Assembly (NCBI GenBank): GCA_025363775.1
Contig: JANYLG010000091.1
Span: forward strand, 7,655 to 71,654
DNA: 64,000 nucleotides
From: Acidobacteriota bacterium
GTDB taxonomy: Bacteria > Acidobacteriota > Vicinamibacteria > Vicinamibacterales > Fen-181
Reading direction: 5' to 3'
In this document: one piece after another, positions 6,618 to 60,317 of the stretch
Numbering within the stretch: the stretch's first letter is position 1
Layout of the letters: every line of letters begins with the position of its first letter
The notes under the pieces: generated by a model
The model's database searches: none
Seen by the model: the letters and a program-made list of their open reading frames with translations, nothing else
What the model was told of the DNA's origin: nothing
Translations under genes and position numbers: made by a program

Positions 6618-9600
6618 ATGCCGACACGCTGGACTCGCCTCGTCTCTGTCGCGCTCATGTTCGTGCTGGCCACCTGGGCCGGGGAGAGATCGGCGTGCGG
6701 TCTCGATCCCGCGAAGCGGATCAGCCAGTACAGTCAGCAGGCCTGGATGGTGGAAGACGGCCTGCCGCAGAACGCGATCCAATGCGTGCTGCAAACCCGT
6801 GACGGCTACGTCTGGCTCGGCACCCAGGAGGGCCTGGTCCGCTTCGACGGCACGCGCTTCGCCGTCTTCGACAAGACCAACACGCCGTCGTTCAGGAGCA
6901 ATGACGTCACCGGCCTCGCCGAATCTCCGGACGGGAGGTTGTGGGTGGCCACCGCCGCCGGGCTCATCGGCCTGAAGGACGGCACGTTCACGGCGTACCG
7001 GACCGACAACGGTCTCCCCTTCGACTTTCTCACCTGCGTGACGATGGCGCCTGACGGCGCCCTCTGGGCCGGCTCCATGGGCGGTGGCGCGATCCGCATG
7101 AAGGACGGCCGCTTCAGCGTCCTGGGTCTCGGCCAGGGACTTCCGCACGGCATCGTCTCCGACATCCTCATCGAGAGCGATGGCCACGTCTGGATCGCCA
7201 CCAACGCCGGCCTCGCCGAGGTCGAAGGGGGGCGGGTCGTTTCGGTGCGCGGCACGGCGAACGGCTTGCCGAACGCCAACGTGCGTGCGCTGATGCAGGA
7301 CGCCGACGGATCGCTCTGGATCGGCACGGCTGCCGGGTTGGCAAAGATGATGGCCGGGAAGATACAGGTCGTCGGTCAGGGCACCACGCTGGCGGGCGCC
7401 GATATCCGTGTCATCTATCGCGATCGTCATGGCGCGCTCTGGGTGGGCACCGACGGGCGTGGCCTCAACCGCATGGTCGGCCAGTCTGTCGAGAGCTACA
7501 CGAGCAAGCAGGGGCTGACGAGCGACTTCGTCTGGGCCGTCTTCGAGGACCGCGAGGCGAACCTCTGGGTCGGCACAATCGGCGGAGGGCTGGTCCGGCT
7601 CAAGGACGGGGCCTTCACGGCATACACCACGGCCGAGGGGCTGTCGAACAACTTCGCAAGACCGATCATCCAGACCAGCGACGGCGCCATCTGGGTCGGC
7701 ACCCAGGGCGGCGGAGTGAACCGCATCAAGGACGGCGTGATTACGGCCTGGAGTACCGCCGAACATCTGCCCGATCCCATGGTGTGGGCGCTCGGCGAGA
7801 CCCGCGACGGCAGCGTGTGGATCGGCACGAACAAAGGCCTGACCGAGATGAAGGACGGTCGCGTTCGCCGCACGTACACCAGCCGCGACGGTTTGGTGGG
7901 CGATGTGGTGCGGGCGATCTTCGAAGCAGCGGACGGGACGATGTGGATTGGGACGCGGGGCGGCGGCTTGTGCACGCTCCGCAACGGCAGGTTCACCGCG
8001 CTGAACGGCGACAAAGCCGTCAGGGACATGGTGATCCACGCCATCATGCAGGATCGAGACGGCGCCATCTGGGTTGGCTCCAACGGCGGCCTCACCAGGT
8101 TCAAGGACGGCGTCTTCACGACGTTCACGACGCGCGACGGGCTGTCGAGCGATACCGTCTATACGATTCGCGAAGACCGTGACGGCGTGCTCTGGATTGG
8201 GTCGTACGGCGGCGGCCTGACACGCCTCGCGACAGGGAAATTTTCGAGATTCACCGCGCGCGACGGACTGTTCGACGATGTCGTGTTCGAGGTGCTCGAC
8301 GACAACGCCGGCAGCCTGTGGATGACGTGCAACAAGGGCATCTTCCGCGTGAGCAAGACGGATCTCGACCGCTTCGCGCGCGGCGAGATCCGATCCTTTC
8401 AGTCGATTGTGTACGGCGTCGCCGACGGCATGCGATCGGCCGAGTGCAACGGCAACGTGCAGCCGGCCGGGTGGCGCGCGGCCGACGGGCGGCTCTGGTT
8501 CCCGACGCTGAAAGGTGTGGTCTCAATCGATCCCTCGCAAGCCCGGACGAGCGCGCCTCCACCGCCCGTGCTCGTGCAGCGGGTCGTGGTGGACAGCGTG
8601 GACTTCGACCTGAGGAAGGCACTGCGCGCGGGTCCTGGCGTGCGCAACCTCGAAATCAGGTATGCCGCGCTGACGTTCGTCTCGCCGAGGCGAATCTCGT
8701 TCCGCTACAAGCTGGAGGGATTCGATCCGGACTGGGTGGACGTTGGGACGCGGCGCGCAGCCTACTACACGAACGTTCCGCCCGGCGCCTATCGCTTCCT
8801 CGTGGGCGCCCGGAACGCCAATGGACAGTGGACGCGGGAACCAGTCGCCGTGTCCATCACGCTGCTCCCGCAGATCTGGCAGACCGTCTGGTTCTACGCG
8901 ATCTGCGCGCTGCTGATCGTCGGCATGGCGTTCGGTCTGCACCGGGCACGCGTGCGGTCATTGCGCCTCCGCGAAGACCATCTCGTGCGGCTGGTGGACG
9001 AGCGGACGCGGGATCTCGAGCAGGCGAAGCTGACCGCCGAGGCGGCCAGCCGGGCGAAGAGCGAATTTCTCGCAAACATGAGCCACGAGATCCGCACGCC
9101 GATGAACGGCATCATCGGCATGACGGACCTGGCGCTGGATACGCCGCCGTCCGTCGAGCAGCGCGAGTACCTCACGATGGTGAAGGCTTCAGCCGAGTCG
9201 CTGATGACCGTGATCAACGACGTGCTCGACTTCTCGAAGATCGAAGCGGGCAAGATCGATCTCGACGAGGTGCCCTTCGGCCTGCGGACGGCGGTGGCGG
9301 ACGCGATGCGGACGCTCGCGCTGCGGGCGCACGAGAAGGGACTCGAACTGCTGTGGCGCGTGGCGCCAGAGGTCCCCGACGGCCTGGTCGGGGATCCGGG
9401 CCGGTTGCGGCAGGTCTTGATCAACCTCGCGGGAAACGCCATCAAGTTCACTGCCACGGGCGAGATCGTCCTCGAGGTGGAGCTGGAGCGGCACACCGCC
9501 GCCGACGTCGTGCTGCACTGCCTGGTGCGTGACACCGGGATCGGGATTCCGCGCGACAAGCAGCAGGCGATCTTCGACGCGTTCGTCCAGGCCGATGGGT

Positions 9601-23360: not shown

Positions 23361-23541
23361 TCTAGCGAGGCGTGCCTCAGACCGCCGAACCTGGCGTGGC
23401 GGCCCCAAGGCACGCCCCGCTAGAACCAGAAACGCTGTTGGCTGGCCCCGCGAAGCGCGGGGCGTAGACGTCTTGAACGGCCGGACGGGCGTCGGCAGAA
23501 ACTTGACTCATTTGTGACGACTTTGGCCGTTCAAGACGTCT
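23361..23541 (-). repeat. Copy A of a 180/181-nt three-hairpin intergenic repeat (reverse orientation relative to copy B)
   Basis: Its reverse complement matches 58657..58836. A 127-nt block and a 17-nt block are identical between copies. The element starts 25 nt past the stop of the methyltransferase gene, in that gene's sense direction. Confidence 0.85.
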
Positions 23542-23566: not shown

Positions 23567-24172
23567 CTATGGCTGGAGTGTCTCGCACGGTTTCTGGTAA
23601 ACGCTGACCCGGGCGGGCGGCAGGTTCCACCACACGACATCCGATGCGAGGAGTTCGAAACGGGAGGTGCCGCGCGGCCGGCCGTTGCCCAGGTAATAGC
23701 TGTATTGAACCCACTTCCCGGCTGGGCGAAGAACAGCGCGGATTTTTCTGGCGAGAGCGTCAGCGGCCTCGGGTGCGAAGTTTCTCAGAGGCAGACTGGA
23801 AATGACCGCCCCTACGAAATTGAGCTGGCGGACGTGCTTCTTCAGCACGCGGTCAAGTTGAAACGCGTCACCGGTTATGATGTGGGCGCGGGGGAAGCGT
23901 TCGCGCAACAGACCGGCCAGCCGGGGCGATTTCTCAATGGCCACCAACCGGTCTTGCCGCAGACCGCGCTCGAGGAGGGCGTGAGTGACCGCTCCCGTGC
24001 CGGGGCCGAGTTCCAGAACGAACTCCCCTGGTTCGGGCGGAAGCCAGTTGGCCATGGCGCTGGCGAGGTTCTTCGAGCTGGGCAGAATCGCACCAATCTG
24101 TTGGGGACAAAGCAGCCATTCGTGGAGGAAAAGCGTCGTGGCACTCAGATTGGCGCGTAATTGCTTGGTCAC
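23567..24172 (-). CDS. Class I SAM-dependent methyltransferase (phospholipid N-methyltransferase-like, COG3963 type)
   Basis: 201-aa ORF. It has the motif I sequence VLELGPGTGAVTHALLERG and the family-typical N-terminus FLHEWLLCPQQIGAILPSS. Confidence 0.75.
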   Translation of the reverse strand: MTKQLRANLSATTLFLHEWLLCPQQIGAILPSSKNLASAMANWLPPEPGEFVLELGPGTGAVTHALLERGLRQDRLVAIEKSPRLAGLLRERFPRAHIITGDAFQLDRVLKKHVRQLNFVGAVISSLPLRNFAPEAADALARKIRAVLRPAGKWVQYSYYLGNGRPRGTSRFELLASDVVWWNLPPARVSVYQKPCETLQP

Positions 24173-24355: not shown

Positions 24356-25189
24356 ATGGACGTACTTGAAGCACACGGAGAGTATAAGGTCGTCGTGCTG
24401 GTGGCCCACGGCCTGAATCTCCGAGCGCACGCGCTCCGCGATTTGTACGAACCGCTGCGCCAGCGCGGAGCGGCGATTGTCGTACTCCGGCTTCGAGGTC
24501 ATGCGAGCGATTCCGTGGGAGACGCGCCGATGCTCGAGGAATGGAAGAGCATCGGTCGGACCGCGTGGGTCGAAGACTGGCGGGAGTCGGCGCGCGTCGC
24601 GGAAGAGCTCGCGACAAGCCGCGGAGTACCGCTGGCTTTCCTGGGGTACAGCCTGGGGGCGCTGATTCACATCTATGGTCTTGCCACGGGCGAACGCGAG
24701 TCCAATCCGTTCCAGCGACAGGTCCTGCTGGCTCCGGCCGTCCGCGTGCGCCATCGAACCCGCTTGGTGCTCCTCTTCCGCCCGTTAGGCAGGCGGTTCA
24801 TCGTGCCCTCGCTTACCCCGGCAGAGATCCGCTCGCACCCAGGCACGAGCATCGCTGCCTACGAATCGCTCTTCGGCTACGAGGCCGCGCTGTCCGCACT
24901 CGACGACCCGAAGCGGGTGAAGATCCCGACGCTCGTACTCATGGCTCCCGGCGATGAGCTGGTGAGCCAGCGGCGACTCGTCGAGTGGATCGAACGCAAC
25001 GGGCTCAGGCCTGAGTGGAGAATGCGGGCCCTCTCCAAGGATTCCGCCACAGCACAGAGCTGGGTCCGGCACCATATCATCACCGAGCGCGGTCTTGGGA
25101 CGGCCGCGTTCGCGGCCCTGACACAGGTCATTGCGGATGCGTTGATCGACGGCGTGATGGACGCCAGCGCCGATGCCCACGCCATATAG
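24356..25189 (+). CDS. Alpha/beta-fold hydrolase (lysophospholipase-like)
   Basis: I start the ORF 24161..25189 at the ATG at 24356 (MDVLEAHGEYKVVVLVAHGLN). The nucleophile elbow is LGYSLGA. It is divergent from the methyltransferase across a lower-GC spacer. Confidence 0.75.
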   Translation: MDVLEAHGEYKVVVLVAHGLNLRAHALRDLYEPLRQRGAAIVVLRLRGHASDSVGDAPMLEEWKSIGRTAWVEDWRESARVAEELATSRGVPLAFLGYSLGALIHIYGLATGERESNPFQRQVLLAPAVRVRHRTRLVLLFRPLGRRFIVPSLTPAEIRSHPGTSIAAYESLFGYEAALSALDDPKRVKIPTLVLMAPGDELVSQRRLVEWIERNGLRPEWRMRALSKDSATAQSWVRHHIITERGLGTAAFAALTQVIADALIDGVMDASADAHAI

Positions 25190-25337
25190 ACGGGCGGGGC
25201 CGGCTCCTTCTTCGCGTCAGAACGTCACCCTCGGGCGGGGCCGCGCCCTGGCCGCCCGGACGATCCAGGAGCCGGATGGTGCTCGCCTGAGGACACCGAT
25301 GGCCCTATACTGCTGGCCTCATGGGAGGATCCCCAAC

Positions 25338-28300
25338 ATGGATGCGAAGACTGACCGGCCTCTACGGATGGGACTCGGCGCCCTGCTCGCCGTGGTGGCA
25401 GCCATCGGATTGTACGCGCAAGGGCAGGGCGGAGCGCCGGCGGGCGACCAACCCCTCGAACCGCTCCGGTTCCGGTATGTCGGCCCGGCCAGCGCGGGGC
25501 GCATCGCCTCGGTGGCCGGCATCCCCGGCGACCAGAAGACCTACTACGCGGGCGCCGCGTCGGGCGGCGTCTGGAAGACCACCGACGGCGGCCAGACCTT
25601 CGAGCCGGTCTTCGACGACCAGCCCGCCCAGGCCATCGGCGCCCTGGCGGTGGCCCAGTCCAACCCGAGCATCGTGTGGGCCGGCACCGGCGAGGCCTGG
25701 GCCATCCGCGATGCCGACGTCATGGGCGACGGCGTCTACAAGTCGGCCGACGCGGGCAAGACGTGGACGAACATGGGGCTGCGCGAAACCGGCCGCATCG
25801 GGCGAATCCTCATCCACCCGACCAACCCGGACGTGGTCTTTGCCTGCGCGCTCGGCCGCACCACCGGCCCGCAGGAGGAGCGCGGCGTCTTCCGTACGAC
25901 CGACGGCGGCCGGAACTGGCAGCGCGTGCTCTTCGTGAACCCCGACACCGGCTGCTCGGGAATCGACATGGACCCGAAAGACCCCAACGTGCTCCTGGCG
26001 GGCACGTGGGAAGTGGTGATGCACACCTGGGCGATGTTCAGCGGCGGACCTGGCAGCGGCGTCTATCGCTCGCGCGACGGCGGCGCCACCTGGCAGCGGC
26101 TCGATCACCCCGGCCTCCCGAAGTCGCCGGTGGGCAAAATCGACGTCGCCATCGCGCCGTCCAACGGCAAGCGGATGTTCGCCCTGATCCAGACGCCGAA
26201 CCAGGGATCGCTGTGGCGCTCGGATGACGCCGGCGATACCTGGAAGGCCGTCAGCTGGGACCGGCGGCTCATCGGCCGCGCCGGCTTCTACATCCGTGTG
26301 GCGGTCAACCCGCAGAACCCAGACGAGGTCTTCGTCGCCAACAGCAGCTTCCACCGCTCTACCGACGGCGGGCTGACCTTCCCGCCCAACACCACGCGCT
26401 GCGGCGACTGCCACGACATCTGGATTGACCCGAAGAACCCCGACCACTGGATCGTGACCGACGATGCCGGCATGACGATCACGCGCGACCACGCGAAGAC
26501 CAACATCAGCATCACGCTGCCGATCGGCCAGATGTACCACGTGGCCATCGACGACCAGGTGCCCTACTGGGTCTACAGCAACCGCCAGGACGACGGGACG
26601 ATGCGCGGGCCGAGCACGTCGCCGGTGCCGGTGACGAACGTGCCGTCCTACTCGGCGGCGCAGGGGGCGCGCGGCGGCGGATTCGGCGGAGGGGGTGGCG
26701 GCGGTCGCGGCGGCGCAGCCGTGGCGTGGCAGGCGGGCATCGGCGGTTGCGAGTCGGGCTTCACCATCGCTGTTCCCGGCAACCCGGACGTCGTCTGGGC
26801 GACGTGCTACGCCAACGAGGTGACCCGCTTCGACAACCGGCTGGGCAGCGCGCGGTCGGTGAGCCCGTGGATCCACACGCTCGACTCGGAGCCGAACAAG
26901 ACGAAGTTCCGCTGCCACTGGACGCCGCCGCTCGCGTTCGACCCGTTCGAGAAAGAGACCGTGTATTACGGCTGCCAGGTGATCTTCAAAACCGACGACC
27001 AGGGGCAGACCTGGAAGATCATCAGCCCGGACCTCTCGACGCAGGATCCGAGCCGGATCGTGTCCTCAGGCGGCATCGTCGGCGACAACCTCGGCCAGTT
27101 CTACGGCGAGGTGGTGTTCGCCATCGCACCGTCGAAGCTGCAGAAGGGGCTGATCTGGGCCGGCACCAACGACGGCCTGATCTGGTTCACGCGCGACGGC
27201 GGACGGAACTGGAACAACGTGACGAAGAATGTGAGCGGCCTGATGAGGTGGGGCACCATCCGCAAGATCGAAGCGTCGCGCTTCGACGCCGGCACGGCGT
27301 TCGTCGCGGTGGACTACCACCTCATGGACAACCGTGAGCCGTTCATCTATAAGACGACCGACTTCGGACAGACGTGGACGAAGCTCAGCGACGGCCTGCC
27401 GAAGGGCCACCCGCTGGCCTACGTCCTCTCGATCGCCGAGAACCCGAACCGGAAGGGCATGCTGTTCGCCGGCACCGGCAACGGCTTCTACTACTCGATG
27501 AACGACGGGAAGACGTGGACGCCAATCAAGGACGGCCTCCCCGCGGCGCCTGTCAGCTGGATCGAGGTGGAGCCGCGCTATCACGACGTCGTCGTGTCGA
27601 CCTACGGCCGCGGGCTCTACATCCTGCGCGACATCACGAGGCTGGAACAGCAGGACCAGGCGGACCAGGCTTCGGCGGCCTACCTGTTCGTGCCCCGGGC
27701 GGGCGTGCGCGAGGCGCGGAGCGGCAGCGCCGACTTCCTCTACTCACTGAAGACCGCGTCGGCCGACCGGGTGAAGTTCGAGATCGTCGATGCCGCCGGC
27801 GTGGTCGTCAGGCGGTTCGACGGCCCGGGCCGCGCGGGATTGAACCGCGCTGCCTGGGACATGCGCCACGATGGCCCCGCCCAGGTGGAACTGCGGACCA
27901 TCCCACCCGACAACCCGCACATCTGGGAAGAAGCGCGGTTCAAGGGGCGTGACACCCGGCCGATCGTCCACTGGGGCATCCAGGGCGCCCAGCGCCAGGG
28001 CCCGCTGGCGACGCCGGGGCGGTATACGGTCCGGATGTCCGTGGGCGGCGCCGCCTACGAACGGCCGGTGGACGTCCTCAAGAACCCGAAGATCCTGACG
28101 CCGGCCTTGGATCTTGCCGCCTCCACCGCGGCACAAGTGCGGATCCGCGACGACATCAACAAGACCGTGGCGATGATCAACCGCCTCGAGGTGATCCGAA
28201 AGCAGATCGAGGACCAGATCAAGACCAACGCCGGCAGGACGCCGGCCGAGCAGGCGCTCCAGGCTCTCGAGAAGAAGATGATGGATGTCGAGCTGCGGCT

Positions 28301-28568
28301 GCTGTCGAGGACCGACCTGCACAGCGACGACAAGTGGTACGTGGAGACCTACAAGGTCTACATGAACCTGCTGTGGCAGATGGGCGTGATCGGCTACGGC
28401 GCCAGCGATGTGGCGGGCGGGGCCGACTACCGGCCGACGGACGCGTCGCTGCAAGTGCTGGACACTATCGAGAAGGACCTGGCCGCGGCCGAGGCAGCCT
28501 ACACGACCTTGATCGAAAAGGATGTGCCCGCGTTCAACAAGTCAAACCCAAAACTCGCCATCAGGTAG
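25338..28568 (+). CDS. Secreted VPS10/sortilin-like BNR (Asp-box) repeat protein
   Basis: I start the ORF 25173..28568 at the ATG at 25338. Alternative starts are 25299 and 25368. Many Asp-box repeats are present (TTDGGQTF, SADAGKTW, TTDGGRNW, SRDGGATW, SDDAGDTW, STDGGLTF, TRDGGRNW). A Gly-rich linker separates two propeller halves. Confidence 0.8.
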   Translation: MDAKTDRPLRMGLGALLAVVAAIGLYAQGQGGAPAGDQPLEPLRFRYVGPASAGRIASVAGIPGDQKTYYAGAASGGVWKTTDGGQTFEPVFDDQPAQAIGALAVAQSNPSIVWAGTGEAWAIRDADVMGDGVYKSADAGKTWTNMGLRETGRIGRILIHPTNPDVVFACALGRTTGPQEERGVFRTTDGGRNWQRVLFVNPDTGCSGIDMDPKDPNVLLAGTWEVVMHTWAMFSGGPGSGVYRSRDGGATWQRLDHPGLPKSPVGKIDVAIAPSNGKRMFALIQTPNQGSLWRSDDAGDTWKAVSWDRRLIGRAGFYIRVAVNPQNPDEVFVANSSFHRSTDGGLTFPPNTTRCGDCHDIWIDPKNPDHWIVTDDAGMTITRDHAKTNISITLPIGQMYHVAIDDQVPYWVYSNRQDDGTMRGPSTSPVPVTNVPSYSAAQGARGGGFGGGGGGGRGGAAVAWQAGIGGCESGFTIAVPGNPDVVWATCYANEVTRFDNRLGSARSVSPWIHTLDSEPNKTKFRCHWTPPLAFDPFEKETVYYGCQVIFKTDDQGQTWKIISPDLSTQDPSRIVSSGGIVGDNLGQFYGEVVFAIAPSKLQKGLIWAGTNDGLIWFTRDGGRNWNNVTKNVSGLMRWGTIRKIEASRFDAGTAFVAVDYHLMDNREPFIYKTTDFGQTWTKLSDGLPKGHPLAYVLSIAENPNRKGMLFAGTGNGFYYSMNDGKTWTPIKDGLPAAPVSWIEVEPRYHDVVVSTYGRGLYILRDITRLEQQDQADQASAAYLFVPRAGVREARSGSADFLYSLKTASADRVKFEIVDAAGVVVRRFDGPGRAGLNRAAWDMRHDGPAQVELRTIPPDNPHIWEEARFKGRDTRPIVHWGIQGAQRQGPLATPGRYTVRMSVGGAAYERPVDVLKNPKILTPALDLAASTAAQVRIRDDINKTVAMINRLEVIRKQIEDQIKTNAGRTPAEQALQALEKKMMDVELRLLSRTDLHSDDKWYVETYKVYMNLLWQMGVIGYGASDVAGGADYRPTDASLQVLDTIEKDLAAAEAAYTTLIEKDVPAFNKSNPKLAIR

Positions 28569-57456: not shown

Positions 57457-57638
57457 GGCCCTGAAAGAATAGCATCGGGCGGTGAACGGACGATACAAGT
57501 GGCCCGCCGGCCAACTATGGCGACCCACCGAGGCCGACGAAGCGCCCGGCCGGCAAGGCGTGACGAGCACTCAGTCCTGAGGGCACAAATACGTCGCCGC
57601 ATTTGTGCATCGACGGACCAAGGGTTTCGGAGGCGACG

Positions 57639-58658
57639 ATGGAGTTACGCGCGGAGTATCGGGCGGCGAGGGAGTCGTCGGCGGTGTTCGACCGGTCGGG
57701 CCGCGGGAAAATCGCGGTGGCGGGGAACGACCGCCGCACGTACCTGCACGCCATGCTGACAAACGACGTTGCGTCACTGCAGGCGGGAGGCGGATGCTAC
57801 GCGGCATACCTGACGCCGCAGGGCCGGATGATCACCGACATGCGGCTGCTCGAACTGGGCGACCTCGTGCTCCTCGATCTCGATCCATCGATGACGGCCA
57901 CGGTTCTGCAGAAACTCGACCAGTTCGTCTTCAGCGAGGACGTGAAGCTCGGCGACCTGACCGAGGCGTTTGGCGAGCTGTCGGTTGTCGGCCCTGCCGC
58001 GGCCCGAGTGGTGGCGGAAGCCATCGGAGCGGGCAGTCAGCCGGGCGTGACCGAGAGCGACCTGCAGGGCTTTGAGGAGTTCCACAACGTCCGCGCGACC
58101 TTCCGCGGCCAGATGGTCCTGGTGGCGGCGTCGCAGGAGACGGGCGCGGCTGGCTTCGACCTGTACGTCGAGCGGCCGCTCCGCGAGGCGCTGGCGGGCG
58201 CGCTGGTTGCGGCGGGCGCGACGCTGGCGAGCGGGGCGACCGCGGAGGTGCTGCGGGTCGAGTCGGGTCGGCCGGCCTTCGGCATCGACATGGATGCCGA
58301 GACGCTTCCGCTCGAGGCCGGAATTGAAGGGCGTGCCATCAGTTTCACCAAGGGGTGCTATCCAGGGCAGGAAGTGGTGATCCGCGTGCTGCATCGGGGC
58401 CGCGGCCGCGTGGCGCGCAAGATCGCGGGGGTGATGGTTTCTGGCGACACCGTGCCTGCGACGGGCGACCTGCTGCGGGCCGGCGACCGCGAGGCCGGTC
58501 GAATCACCAGCGCGGTGTGGTCGCCGCTGACAGGTGGCCCAATCGCCCTGGCGCTCGTCCACCGAGATTTCCTCGCGCCCGGCACCGAACTGACGATCCT
58601 CCACGGCGACCATGCGCTCTCCTCGACGGTCGTCACGCTCCCATTCGAGCCCCGTTAG
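57639..58658 (+). CDS. ygfZ: Folate-binding YgfZ/CAF17-family protein (GcvT-like fold)
   Basis: I start the ORF 57603..58658 at the ATG at 57639. The sequence begins MELRAEYRAARESSAVFDRSGRGKIAVAG.DRRTYLHAMLTNDV and contains the family signature FTKGCYPGQE. Confidence 0.8.
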   Translation: MELRAEYRAARESSAVFDRSGRGKIAVAGNDRRTYLHAMLTNDVASLQAGGGCYAAYLTPQGRMITDMRLLELGDLVLLDLDPSMTATVLQKLDQFVFSEDVKLGDLTEAFGELSVVGPAAARVVAEAIGAGSQPGVTESDLQGFEEFHNVRATFRGQMVLVAASQETGAAGFDLYVERPLREALAGALVAAGATLASGATAEVLRVESGRPAFGIDMDAETLPLEAGIEGRAISFTKGCYPGQEVVIRVLHRGRGRVARKIAGVMVSGDTVPATGDLLRAGDREAGRITSAVWSPLTGGPIALALVHRDFLAPGTELTILHGDHALSSTVVTLPFEPR

Positions 58659-58836
58659 ACGTCTTGAACGGCCAAAGTCGTTGCGAATGAGTCACGTTCT
58701 GTCGACTTCCGTCCGGCCGTTCAAGACGTCTACGCCCCGCGCTTCGCGGGGCCAGCCAACAGCGTTTCTGGTTCTAGCGGGGCGTGCCTTGGGGCCGCCA
58801 CGCCAGGTTCGGCGGTCTGAGGCACGCCTCGCTAGA
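58657..58836 (+). repeat. Copy B of the 180/181-nt three-hairpin intergenic repeat
   Basis: It starts inside the ygfZ TAG stop codon. Hairpin 1 has 17-bp perfect arms: AGACGTCTTGAACGGCC (58657-58673) and GGCCGTTCAAGACGTCT (58715-58731). Hairpin 2 is CCCCGCG-AAG-CGCGGGG. Hairpin 3 is CTAGCGGGGCGTGCC ... GGCACGCCTCGCTAG. Confidence 0.85.
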
Positions 58837-58968: not shown

Positions 58969-59367
58969 TCAGGGTGATGGTGCCAGGCGCGCCACCAGTT
59001 CGCTGTCGGCGGGCGGAAACGAGAGCGTACGGAGTTCGTGGCTGGCAACCCAGCGGATCTCTTGTCCCAGCAGCGGTCGCGGTTCGCTGGTGAGATCGCA
59101 CCGGAAGAACCTGAGGTCGAGCACCCGATCGGCGTAGGCGTAGGTCGTGCGGAAGATCTCCTCGTGCACCGTGGCGATCGCGCCGAGTTCCTCGACAATC
59201 TCCCGCGCCAGGCACGCTTCGGCCGATTCGCCCGGCTCGCACTTTCCGCCGGGAAACTCCCAGAAGCCGCCCATGTGCGAGCCTTCGAGGCGGCGGGCCA
59301 CGAGAAGAAAGCCGTCGCGCTCGATGACGGCGGCGGTCACGATGGTCGGTGCCTTGGTCTTGTCCAT
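58969..59367 (-). CDS. NUDIX hydrolase, MutT-like (8-oxo-dGTP diphosphatase type)
   Basis: 132-aa ORF with an intact Nudix box, GGKCEPGESAEACLAREIVEELG. Confidence 0.85.
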   Translation of the reverse strand: MDKTKAPTIVTAAVIERDGFLLVARRLEGSHMGGFWEFPGGKCEPGESAEACLAREIVEELGAIATVHEEIFRTTYAYADRVLDLRFFRCDLTSEPRPLLGQEIRWVASHELRTLSFPPADSELVARLAPSP

Positions 59368-59386: not shown

Positions 59387-60211
59387 CTACGTCGCTCTGG
59401 CGTGGCGCCGCTTCTTCGCGGCGCTGGCGAGCTTCGCGATGCTGCCGTCGAGCGGATACGAGACGCACGACCGCGCCATCGGGCACGATGCGCACTGCGG
59501 CTTGCGTGCCGGGCAGACGATGGCGCCGAAATCCATGAGCGCCTGGTTGAAATCGAACACGCGCTTGCGGGGCAGCAGCGCGCGCGACACGTCCCACAGG
59601 TGCTTCCGTGCGGCGTGGGCTACCTCGTCCCCCTTGCCCACGAACACGCGGAACAGCACGCGGGCGACGTTGGTGTCGAGGATTGCCGACCGCTGGCCGA
59701 ACGCGAAGCTTCGAATCGCGCCAGCCGTGTACTGCCCGATCCCCTTGAAGGAGAGCAGGGTCTCTTCGTCGGCCGGGAGCGCGCCGTTGTAGCGCGCGAC
59801 CGCCTCTCGAGCGATCGAGTGCAGACGTCGCGGACGGATGTTGTATCCCAGCGGATACCAGGCTTGCACGGCTTCCTCGACAGGCCTGGCCGCCAGCGCT
59901 TCGAGCGACGGGAAACGCTCCAGCCACTCGAGGTACTTCGGCAGGACGCGGTCCACCTGCGTCTGCTGGAGCATGATCTCCGAGACGAGGATCTGGTAGG
60001 GGTCCGCTGCGCGGCGCCACGGCAGGTCGCGGCCGTTCCGGTCGTACCAATCGAGCAGCCGGCGGCGAAACGCCTGCCGCGCGCCCGCTCCGGGCATTGC
60101 CGCAGTCTTCCGCATAACCCGGCCGCGCCGGAACCCACGTGCCGCAGCCGGGTTATTAGCGGCCTCCGGCCGACAACCAGGACCGCTCTTCTTCTGTGTC
60201 GAGGAGTTCAT
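59387..60211 (-). CDS. mutY: A/G-specific adenine glycosylase catalytic domain (MutY-like), lacking the C-terminal Nudix-fold domain
   Basis: I take the ORF 59387..60241 from the ATG at 60211, but the start is uncertain and 60115 is also possible. Motifs include LPWRR..DPYQILVSEIMLQQTQV, GIGQYTAGAIRSFAF, AILDTNVARV and the 4Fe-4S loop CPARKPQCASCPMARSC. Only about 25 aa follow the cluster. Confidence 0.8.
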   Translation of the reverse strand: MNSSTQKKSGPGCRPEAANNPAAARGFRRGRVMRKTAAMPGAGARQAFRRRLLDWYDRNGRDLPWRRAADPYQILVSEIMLQQTQVDRVLPKYLEWLERFPSLEALAARPVEEAVQAWYPLGYNIRPRRLHSIAREAVARYNGALPADEETLLSFKGIGQYTAGAIRSFAFGQRSAILDTNVARVLFRVFVGKGDEVAHAARKHLWDVSRALLPRKRVFDFNQALMDFGAIVCPARKPQCASCPMARSCVSYPLDGSIAKLASAAKKRRHARAT

Positions 60212-60317
60212 CCGCGGGGGACGAATAGCAGGCACACCCATGTTTGAGACCGTGCCATGATCAGTGAGCGGATGGCAAGAACTGAAAATGGGTGGTGCCG
60301 TGACATAATTCTCCCCG

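Follow-up and report, generated by a model that had tools for sequence, protein, structure and literature searches.

A structured repeat in an Acidobacteriota genome is very probably a gene-less miniature of a CTAG-targeting insertion sequence that lacks terminal inverted repeats

A three-hairpin repeat of about 180 nt, present in two inverted copies in a 64,000-nucleotide stretch of DNA from an Acidobacteriota bacterium (hereafter the window), is very probably a gene-less, MITE-like and non-autonomous derivative of a ~1.8-kb insertion sequence (IS) that targets CTAG and has no terminal inverted repeats (TIRs). The element has both ends of this IS, namely the 5′ end AGA-N3-CTTGA, followed ~30 nt on by (A)TGAGTCAAGTT, and the 3′ end ...CTCG-NN-GGTCTGAGGC-NNN-GCCTCGCTAG. 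Each end is accompanied by an added copy in inverted form, so that hairpins 1 and 3 stand on either side of a GC hairpin. The ~535-aa IS protein, which has conserved acidic residues and a C-terminal winged helix, would mobilise the element in trans. As expected of a MITE, the element is short, non-coding and multi-copy, has common sharp boundaries and shares its termini with an ORF-bearing element. It has no TIRs matching those of a parent, and the parent IS likewise has none; we therefore file it as a MITE-like non-autonomous element and not as a strict MITE. The preliminary description, made from the sequence alone, had not recognised the family, and we agree: there was no Rfam match, and neither Rfam, Pfam, NCBIfam nor the literature (searched with motif strings and keywords) held a description of it, ISfinder being outside this comparison. 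Judged by Pfam, NCBIfam, PHROG, PDB and the literature, the IS family is apparently unclassified.

An inverted-repeat search and pairwise alignment confirmed that the two inverted copies are real (180/181 nt), with sharp ends (AGACGTCT...CGCTAG) and three strong hairpins. In the window-wide search, the arms 23361-23500 / 58697-58836 (140 nt) are 98% complementary, and the arms 23500-23541 / 58657-58698 (42 nt) 90%. In an alignment of both copies in one sense, AGACGTCT marks the exact start of the similarity and CGCTAG(A) its end, the flanks being unrelated; base 58836 (A) is probably target DNA rather than part of copy B. All differences between copies A and B, one indel included, lie within the 41-nt loop of hairpin 1, and the 3′ ~130 nt are identical. 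The 17-mer arm of hairpin 1 occurs 4 times in the window, compared with 0.23 expected occurrences. The features are:

58657..58835, plus strand: copy B of the non-autonomous element, 179 nt, AGACGTCT...CGCTAG; full-length nhmmer match, E = 1.7e-44; empty site in relatives
23362..23541, minus strand: copy A of the same element as copy B, 180 nt; nhmmer match 23541-23362, E = 7e-43
58656..58658, plus strand: TAG stop of the YgfZ-like gene, into which copy B inserted; the element as delimited begins with the A and G of this stop
58657..58673, plus strand: 5′ terminus of copy B and 5′ arm of hairpin 1, AGACGTCTTGAACGGCC; counterpart of the full-length IS end AGA-N3-CTTGA, which lies downstream of the IS ORF stop
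58686..58701, plus strand: conserved loop motif of copy B, AATGAGTCACGTTCTG; family consensus (A)ATGAGTCAAGTTYT
58715..58731, plus strand: 3′ arm of hairpin 1 of copy B, GGCCGTTCAAGACGTCT; the 5′ terminus copied inverted, nearly invariant in the family
58734..58752, plus strand: hairpin 2 of copy B, CCCCGCGC-TTC-GCGGGG type, GC-rich; the sequence changes and the pairing is kept
58753..58773, plus strand: linker of copy B, CAGCCAACAGCGTTTCTGGTT; a small covarying hairpin, with the last 3 nt, GTT, just before hairpin 3
58774..58835, plus strand: hairpin 3 of copy B, 5′ arm CTAGCGGGGCGTGCC, 3′ arm and terminus ...GGTCTGAGGCACGCCTCGCTAG

The loop motif lies ~30 nt from the 5′ end of the element, at the same spacing as in the full-length IS, and the 3′ terminus ...GGTCTGAGGCACGCCTCGCTAG is the end common to the whole superfamily and the full-length IS. 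None of the full-length IS copies examined showed the arms of hairpins 1 and 3, including the inverted 3′ arm of hairpin 1. TIRs and a consistent ORF had already been reported as lacking, and this holds: CTAG is all that the 5′ end, AGACGTCTTGAACGG, has in common with the 3′ end read as its reverse complement, CTAGCGAGGCGG, and copies of 150-180 nt have no conserved ORF, with indels breaking the frame. The statement that no direct repeats flank the copies was not quite right, as (T/C)AG precedes each copy and CTAG stands at each copy's end; this short repeat is the CTAG target signature of the family. At the gathering threshold there was no Rfam match in the window, and permissive settings yielded weak chance miRNA matches only. 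The direct-repeat families of the window are unrelated to the element and are explained by repeats within ORFs, namely 126-nt (42-aa) periodic repeats at 6786-8120, which by eye resemble beta-propeller sensor blades of the Y_Y_Y type, and a separate 1131-aa ORF at 25173-28568 that encodes a BNR/Sortilin-Vps10 repeat protein.

Scanning one genome per species with the 17-mer arm gave at least 101 loci, mostly in Acidobacteriota/Vicinamibacterales MAGs, and BLAST and nhmmer on these loci gave at least 58 distinct near-full copies. Subtype A, of 175-180 nt, comprises both copies of the window as well as one from MAG JADGOB01 with 98% identity; subtype B has 157-160 nt. The preliminary description had considered that only two copies might exist, as products of a segmental duplication, and that covariation might be lacking. 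These doubts fall away because the copies are numerous, dozens of them lying outside the window, because empty sites exist and because the structure covaries, and the element is thus a multi-copy mobile repeat and not a local duplication. Copies also occur in head-to-tail arrays with the common junction ...CGCTAG/ACGTC, one CTAG being shared per junction (four copies and a 44-nt mini at L089:3505-4240, two copies at L010:38-385, two at L082:3745-4091), since a resident copy offers its own 3′ CTAG as a target. In internally deleted minis, which measure 41-69 nt, both ends persist, the 5′ end with ~23 nt and the 3′ end with ~18 nt. Tandem arrays and deletion minis that keep the ends are transposon behaviour.

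Several single loci deserve mention. Directly before the L089 and L082 arrays there is a truncated copy or a solo 3′ end. The two-copy array at L082:3745-4091 and a single copy at L038:3767-3928, found in two MAGs, apparently occupy the same site beside a convergent gene ending ...YADKF (stop), and some insertions are therefore old and retained. MAG CAZDLW01, which bears the label 'Bifidobacteriaceae', combines a GC content of 64-67% with over 20 type B copies (L008, L024, L025, L029, L030, L036, L051 and others), and its label looks doubtful. At L031:3415-3500, an in-frame fusion links the 5′ half of a copy with the beginning of an ORF that has a signal peptide and looks SCO1/SenC-like by eye; this may be an exaptation or a truncation. 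At L113:2205-2500 in MAG DASXVO01, hflK is preceded by a degenerate copy, in a position that corresponds to that of window copy A, but with a different upstream gene. One type B copy (L025:2381-2691, minus strand) is interrupted, in the CTAG by the 5′ foot of its hairpin 3, by an unrelated 141-nt MITE that has perfect 12-bp TIRs (TGGTGTGTCCAC...GTGGACACACCA) and is itself flanked by CTAG left and right, and this same MITE adjoins the 3′ CTAG of another copy (L008:2974 onward); the element's own CTAGs therefore attract other CTAG-targeting transposons. Plasmid and phage collections gave no DNA match for the element, and two viral-contig matches of the 17-mer were discarded as single-arm chance matches without nhmmer support. 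L050 and L080 were rejected as long variants of the element: a DNA methylase and a unique ORF without Pfam match lie there between partial copies, so that these loci do not supply a partner.

The target can be read from the flanks and from an orthologous empty site. The left flank is mostly CT, with C at -2 in 45/57 and T at -1 in 41/57 copies, and weaker G and C at -3 and -4. Around two YgfZ homologues, of 96% and 78% identity, the ygfZ-NUDIX-HhH-GPD synteny is conserved and the element is absent; their empty sites read CCCCGGTAG/TTGAACCACAAAG (L107) and CCCCGGTAG/GTCAACCACC (L108), and the occupied site in the window reads CCCCGTTAG-(177 nt)-ATCAACCACAAAG. The orthologous YgfZ-NUDIX intergenic region thus shows a presence/absence polymorphism, and copy B therefore inserted exactly at the TAG stop of ygfZ. 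For copy A no orthologous empty site was obtained, since the upstream neighbours of HflK homologues differ from those at its locus. The window copies carry CC and TT, not CT, before the AG, so the target is relaxed to YAG. At least five copies extend over the stop codon of a gene that runs in their own direction, and at least seven provide a convergent gene with its TAG; copies lie on or beside TAG stop codons because the target is (C)TAG. As the element inserts at (C)TAG, its junctions read CT/AG...CGCT/AG, and where a gene converges on it, the terminal CTAG can take the place of that gene's stop codon. The (C)TAG to the left, together with the CTAG that ends the element on the right, fits insertion 3′ of a fixed tetra- or pentanucleotide without duplication, and fits duplication equally well; the chemistry might be a 4-bp CTAG duplication, a TA duplication or recombination at CTAG.

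Copy A starts 25 nt past the stop of a 201-aa methyltransferase ORF (23567-24172, minus; Methyltransf_25), upstream of an SPFH/HflK gene on the same strand, and copy B starts inside the TAG stop of a GcvT/YgfZ-type ORF (57603-58658, plus) and faces convergent genes, a NUDIX ORF at 58969-59367 (by synteny) and an HhH-GPD gene at 59387-60241. A position just past a gene's 3′ end and in its sense direction, as described beforehand, is therefore correct for the two window copies but not for the family, in which orientation is unbiased: the upstream gene has the same direction in 9 cases and the opposite one in 12, the downstream gene has the same direction in 14 cases and converges on the element in 12, and divergent genes flank 7 copies. 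The element is mostly found in intergenic DNA. Eight copies on one 3.2-Mb contig, whose origin and terminus were not placed, have mixed orientations.

The strand read 5′-AGACG... is predicted to form three hairpins with -113.7 kcal/mol, compared with -73.3 ± 4.5 in shuffles (z = -8.9), and the opposite strand reaches z = -6.8. A structure alignment of the 22 type A copies has 97.9% of its cells paired, with compensatory changes at ten pairs versus 3.6 in column shuffles (0/500) and 1-2 when partners were slid. Covariation is located in hairpin 2, where C-G is replaced by U-A in 7/22 type A copies, and in the upper part of hairpin 3, so that helices 2 and 3 covary and the lack of covariation that had been considered as a counter-argument does not apply. 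In type B, hairpin 2 differs from that of type A (CCCGCAC/GTGCGGG). The 15-bp stem of hairpin 1 never covaries because its sequence is conserved in both arms. Hairpins 1 and 3 are unrelated in sequence, and they are located at the very ends and not subterminally.

Clustering of ORFs from ~100 loci revealed no recurrent transposase beside the copies, the recurring families being ABC, histidine-kinase, sigma-54 and outer-membrane proteins only. The relative with a gene came from a metagenome scan with the 3′-end pattern GGTCYGAGGCN{2,3}GCCTCGCTAG, which gave 120 loci, among them 27 places (9 full-length) with nhmmer matches to the 180-nt family. The ~35-nt 3′ end, the 5′ AGA-N3-CTTGA and the loop motif (A)TGAGTCAAGTT are common to many different short repeats on contigs of widely varied GC. 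Ten of the metagenome loci have, on the opposite strand and starting ~80-110 nt from the 3′ end, a conserved ORF of 535-549 aa, in whose frame substitutions have a codon periodicity of 136/235/127; a matching 5′ end with loop motif lies ~1.79 kb away, directly after the ORF stop. Both termini and the loop motif are thus shared by the element and ~1.8-kb single-ORF elements. In the full-length IS, the shared end stands ~80-155 nt upstream of the start codon of the single ~535-aa ORF, varying by copy; a ~155-nt structured leader, without Rfam match, precedes the ORF, there are no TIRs, and CTAG is found at both junctions. Five loci of one sample contain five identical IS copies, each CTAG-bounded and with unrelated flanks. 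One copy splits an AAA ATPase gene, and in-silico excision that leaves exactly one CTAG restores a 510-aa ORF with Walker A. IS and MITEs occur together on one contig, L202. A full-length IS with the termini of the window lineage (AGACGTCTTGAAC... and ...GGTCTGAGGCACGCCTCGCTAG) was not recovered from a Vicinamibacterales genome, and the window and 0.87 Mb of genome loci likewise contained none; the link to trans-mobilisation therefore rests on terminal homology across lineages. Two further observations concern the surroundings of IS copies. One full-length copy starts 18 nt after a tmRNA gene (L235:967-1345; Rfam RF00023, 224 bits), and Y1_Tnp (RAYT-like) genes lie ~100-1250 nt from two copies (L239:1873-2607; L237:4366-4617), with short repeats GGAAAACGGGCCAGGCTC(A/G)AATATT between the IS and the Y1_Tnp gene at L239. 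The Y1_Tnp genes and the short repeats are probably incidental.

The ~535-aa protein is predicted to be the transposase of the IS. It has no match in Pfam, NCBIfam, PHROG or PDB sequences (PDB by profile search), and a domain search with ten diverse members detected no transposase domain at E <= 1, nor at E <= 0.01, and sub-threshold winged-helix matches only, near residues 430-490. AlphaFold (AF2) models were mediocre (pLDDT 59.7 for the full length, 68.1 for the N-terminal part), and Foldseek on these models returned a MarR-like winged helix only, the N-terminal domain being without a credible match. The residues D22, E113, D151, E252, E336, D344 and H176, together with several Tyr, Lys and Arg, are invariant across 30-60% identity. 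At least 8000 homologue candidates were scored, all with E below 1e-5, and every one among the 120 matches listed had the source name 'hypothetical protein'. At E <= 1e-3 and 50% identity there are 10,862 clusters, and these span metagenome contigs of varied GC and plasmids of Proteobacteria and Actinobacteria. Many contigs that carry the protein are ~1.8 kb long, which is the element length. By tblastn, the protein was found on plasmids of Burkholderia, Caballeronia, Paraburkholderia, Rhodococcus and Mycobacterium, nearly always annotated as hypothetical, and the IS copy of Burkholderia sp. YI23 has the same ends.

A further aspect is a guide-like complementarity in the genome-derived set, where the 3-4 nt that follow the terminal CTAG are complementary to the 3-4 nt directly in front of hairpin 3 (for example GTT/AAC, GGG/CCC, GGA/TCC, GGTG/CACC, GATT/AATC, ATG/CAT and CAAC/GTTG). 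In most type A copies the last 3 nt of the linker (GTT in copy B) complement the right flank (AAC), and the mean stem extension of type A and genome-derived copies is 1.52, compared with 0.44 ± 0.11 in shuffles (0/2000). The right-flank signal was not replicated in other lineages (0.40 vs 0.36, n = 30 copies), and between the left flank and the bases after hairpin 1 there is a weak covariation (12/49 vs 6.3 expected, p = 0.006). That the flanking AAC belongs to the element was rejected, as it encodes the native C-terminal Phe of neighbouring proteins: by L057 and L014, the flank encodes the C-terminal Phe of ribosomal protein L18 (...AGLEF) and AsnRS (...KSAEF), cf. PDB 1ovy and 6pqh. The bases right of CTAG belong to the target DNA and not to the element. 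For the lineage of the window, the 3 nt before hairpin 3 may have a part in target choice through pairing with the 3 nt that follow CTAG on the right, which would resemble the guide-directed targeting of IS200/IS605; an alternative source of the pairing is palindrome extension after insertion. The most far-reaching proposal, that the ~535-aa protein is an unrecognised class of transposase or recombinase of an abundant CTAG-targeting TIR-less IS family and that target choice in the window's MITE lineage is encoded by 3 nt of DNA, is one that we put forward tentatively and hold to be rather doubtful.

The preliminary description compared the repeat with REPINs and PATEs, hairpin repeats that are mobilised as single-stranded DNA by a Y1 HUH transposase (RAYT or IS200/IS605 TnpA). 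What stands of this comparison is the non-autonomous, multi-copy mobile repeat, but no RAYT or IS200/IS605 TnpA was found in 0.87 Mb of window and loci, and the autonomous relative encodes a different, ~535-aa protein, so that we regard such a mobilisation as very unlikely. The absence of TIRs, the hairpin feet at both ends and the orientation-specific insertion by a short specific sequence would all suit it, and the complementarity of the type A 3 nt before hairpin 3 to the right flank recalls IS608 guide/target pairing. RAYT-like genes, flanked by TIRs, have moreover been reported in Acidobacteria (PMC3733652), and Y1_Tnp genes happen to lie near two IS copies. However, tblastn with IS608 TnpA and an E. 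coli RAYT gave no match in 0.87 Mb comprising the window and ~100 loci, no recurrent gene stands beside the copies, and the element shares its ends with an IS that has a single ORF, which does not encode a Y1 enzyme. Orientations are mixed within 24 kb of one contig (L014 minus, L010 plus), and the guide signal is absent in other lineages. The two end hairpins are unrelated in sequence, unlike the ends of IS200/IS605, and differ from the similar subterminal hairpins at both ends of a PATE; the 5′ tag is CTAG, or CGTC inside AGACGTCT, and not the GTAG of a REPIN, whose two hairpins would not differ as they do here.

Two readings that place the function in RNA fare no better. Selection for structure in a 3′-UTR stabiliser, a terminator or an sRNA gene, spread by duplication, would explain the very stable fold (z = -8.9), the compensatory changes in helices 2 and 3, the excess of G-U over A-C mispairs on the 5′-AGACG... 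strand (about 17 vs 8) and the sense position of both window copies behind genes. But the family has no orientation bias with respect to flanking genes, 7 copies lying between divergent genes, and the element has no T tract, no consensus promoter or terminator and no Rfam match, forms tandem arrays and end-keeping minis as a transposon would, and has the termini of the IS. Because orientation is random and a T tract is lacking, the 3′-UTR or terminator role suggested beforehand is not supported, and we give an RNA module of this kind even less credence. Least probable of all is an RNA-guided non-autonomous module similar to the bridge or seek RNAs of IS110/IS1111. It could accommodate ~180 nt of highly structured DNA without TIRs, a short shared core (AG, which is CT on the other strand) and the ~155-nt structured leader upstream of the full-length IS ORF, and a precedent is the selfish ssr9 of ISPpu9, a small RNA module with the A′/B′ end boxes of the IS that excises as a circle (PMC12288879). 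Against this, the partner protein has no DEDD or IS110 domains in Pfam and NCBIfam, the flanks are unconserved over 10-14 nt, and there is no complementarity between a copy's flanks and its own variable loop.

Our preferred reading, a miniature derivative of the CTAG-targeting IS, accounts for a striking structured repeat of a soil phylum that has received little study. It also draws attention to an abundant IS family that is carried only as 'hypothetical protein' in Pfam, NCBIfam and the RefSeq plasmid annotations sampled, and mobile DNA is therefore missed in many genomes and metagenomes. Assemblies break at the IS, as is seen from the many contigs of ~1.8 kb. A strict CTAG target leads to insertions on TAG stops, which the element can replace, and would allow the transposon to sit between genes harmlessly. 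Mechanistic interest, and possibly use as a tool, would follow if the protein's catalysis proved to be of a new class or the 3-nt pairing proved to be real; in the latter case, specificity might be reprogrammable through three base changes.

Among the closest known systems, IS630 and IS5 have a similar target choice. CTAG is a rare palindrome; IS630 targets CTAG with TA duplication, and IS5 targets YTAR with a 4-bp duplication. The IS described here has in common with them the CTAG target, a CTAG at both junctions and the restoration of one CTAG on excision. It differs by the absence of TIRs and of DDE_3 or DDE_Tnp_1 domains, no transposase domain of these families being matched at E <= 0.01 (E <= 1 in 10 diverse members), and its sequences are compatible with a duplication of 0, 2 or 4 bp. 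With IS200/IS605, PATEs and REPIN-RAYT it shares the lack of TIRs, end hairpins, sequence- and orientation-specific insertion and, in type A only, a possible pairing of a trinucleotide with the target, whereas the partner ORF of ~535 aa has no Y1/HUH signature, the junction lies inside a canonical stem and no strand bias was seen. IS110/IS1111 elements resemble it in lacking TIRs, in choosing a specific target and in having a long structured non-coding leader before the ORF, but here there is no DEDD/Transposase_20 domain, and the target comprises only 4 bp (plus about 3 nt) and not a long RNA-specified site. Like MITEs and other non-autonomous derivatives (Correia/NEMIS; ISPpu9 ssr9, PMC12288879), the element is short, non-coding and multi-copy, keeps the parent ends only, is presumably mobilised in trans, is present or absent at orthologous sites and occurs mainly between genes; it differs from them in that its ends are not TIRs of each other, that each end is duplicated inverted inside to give two end hairpins, and that its parent IS belongs to no recognised family.
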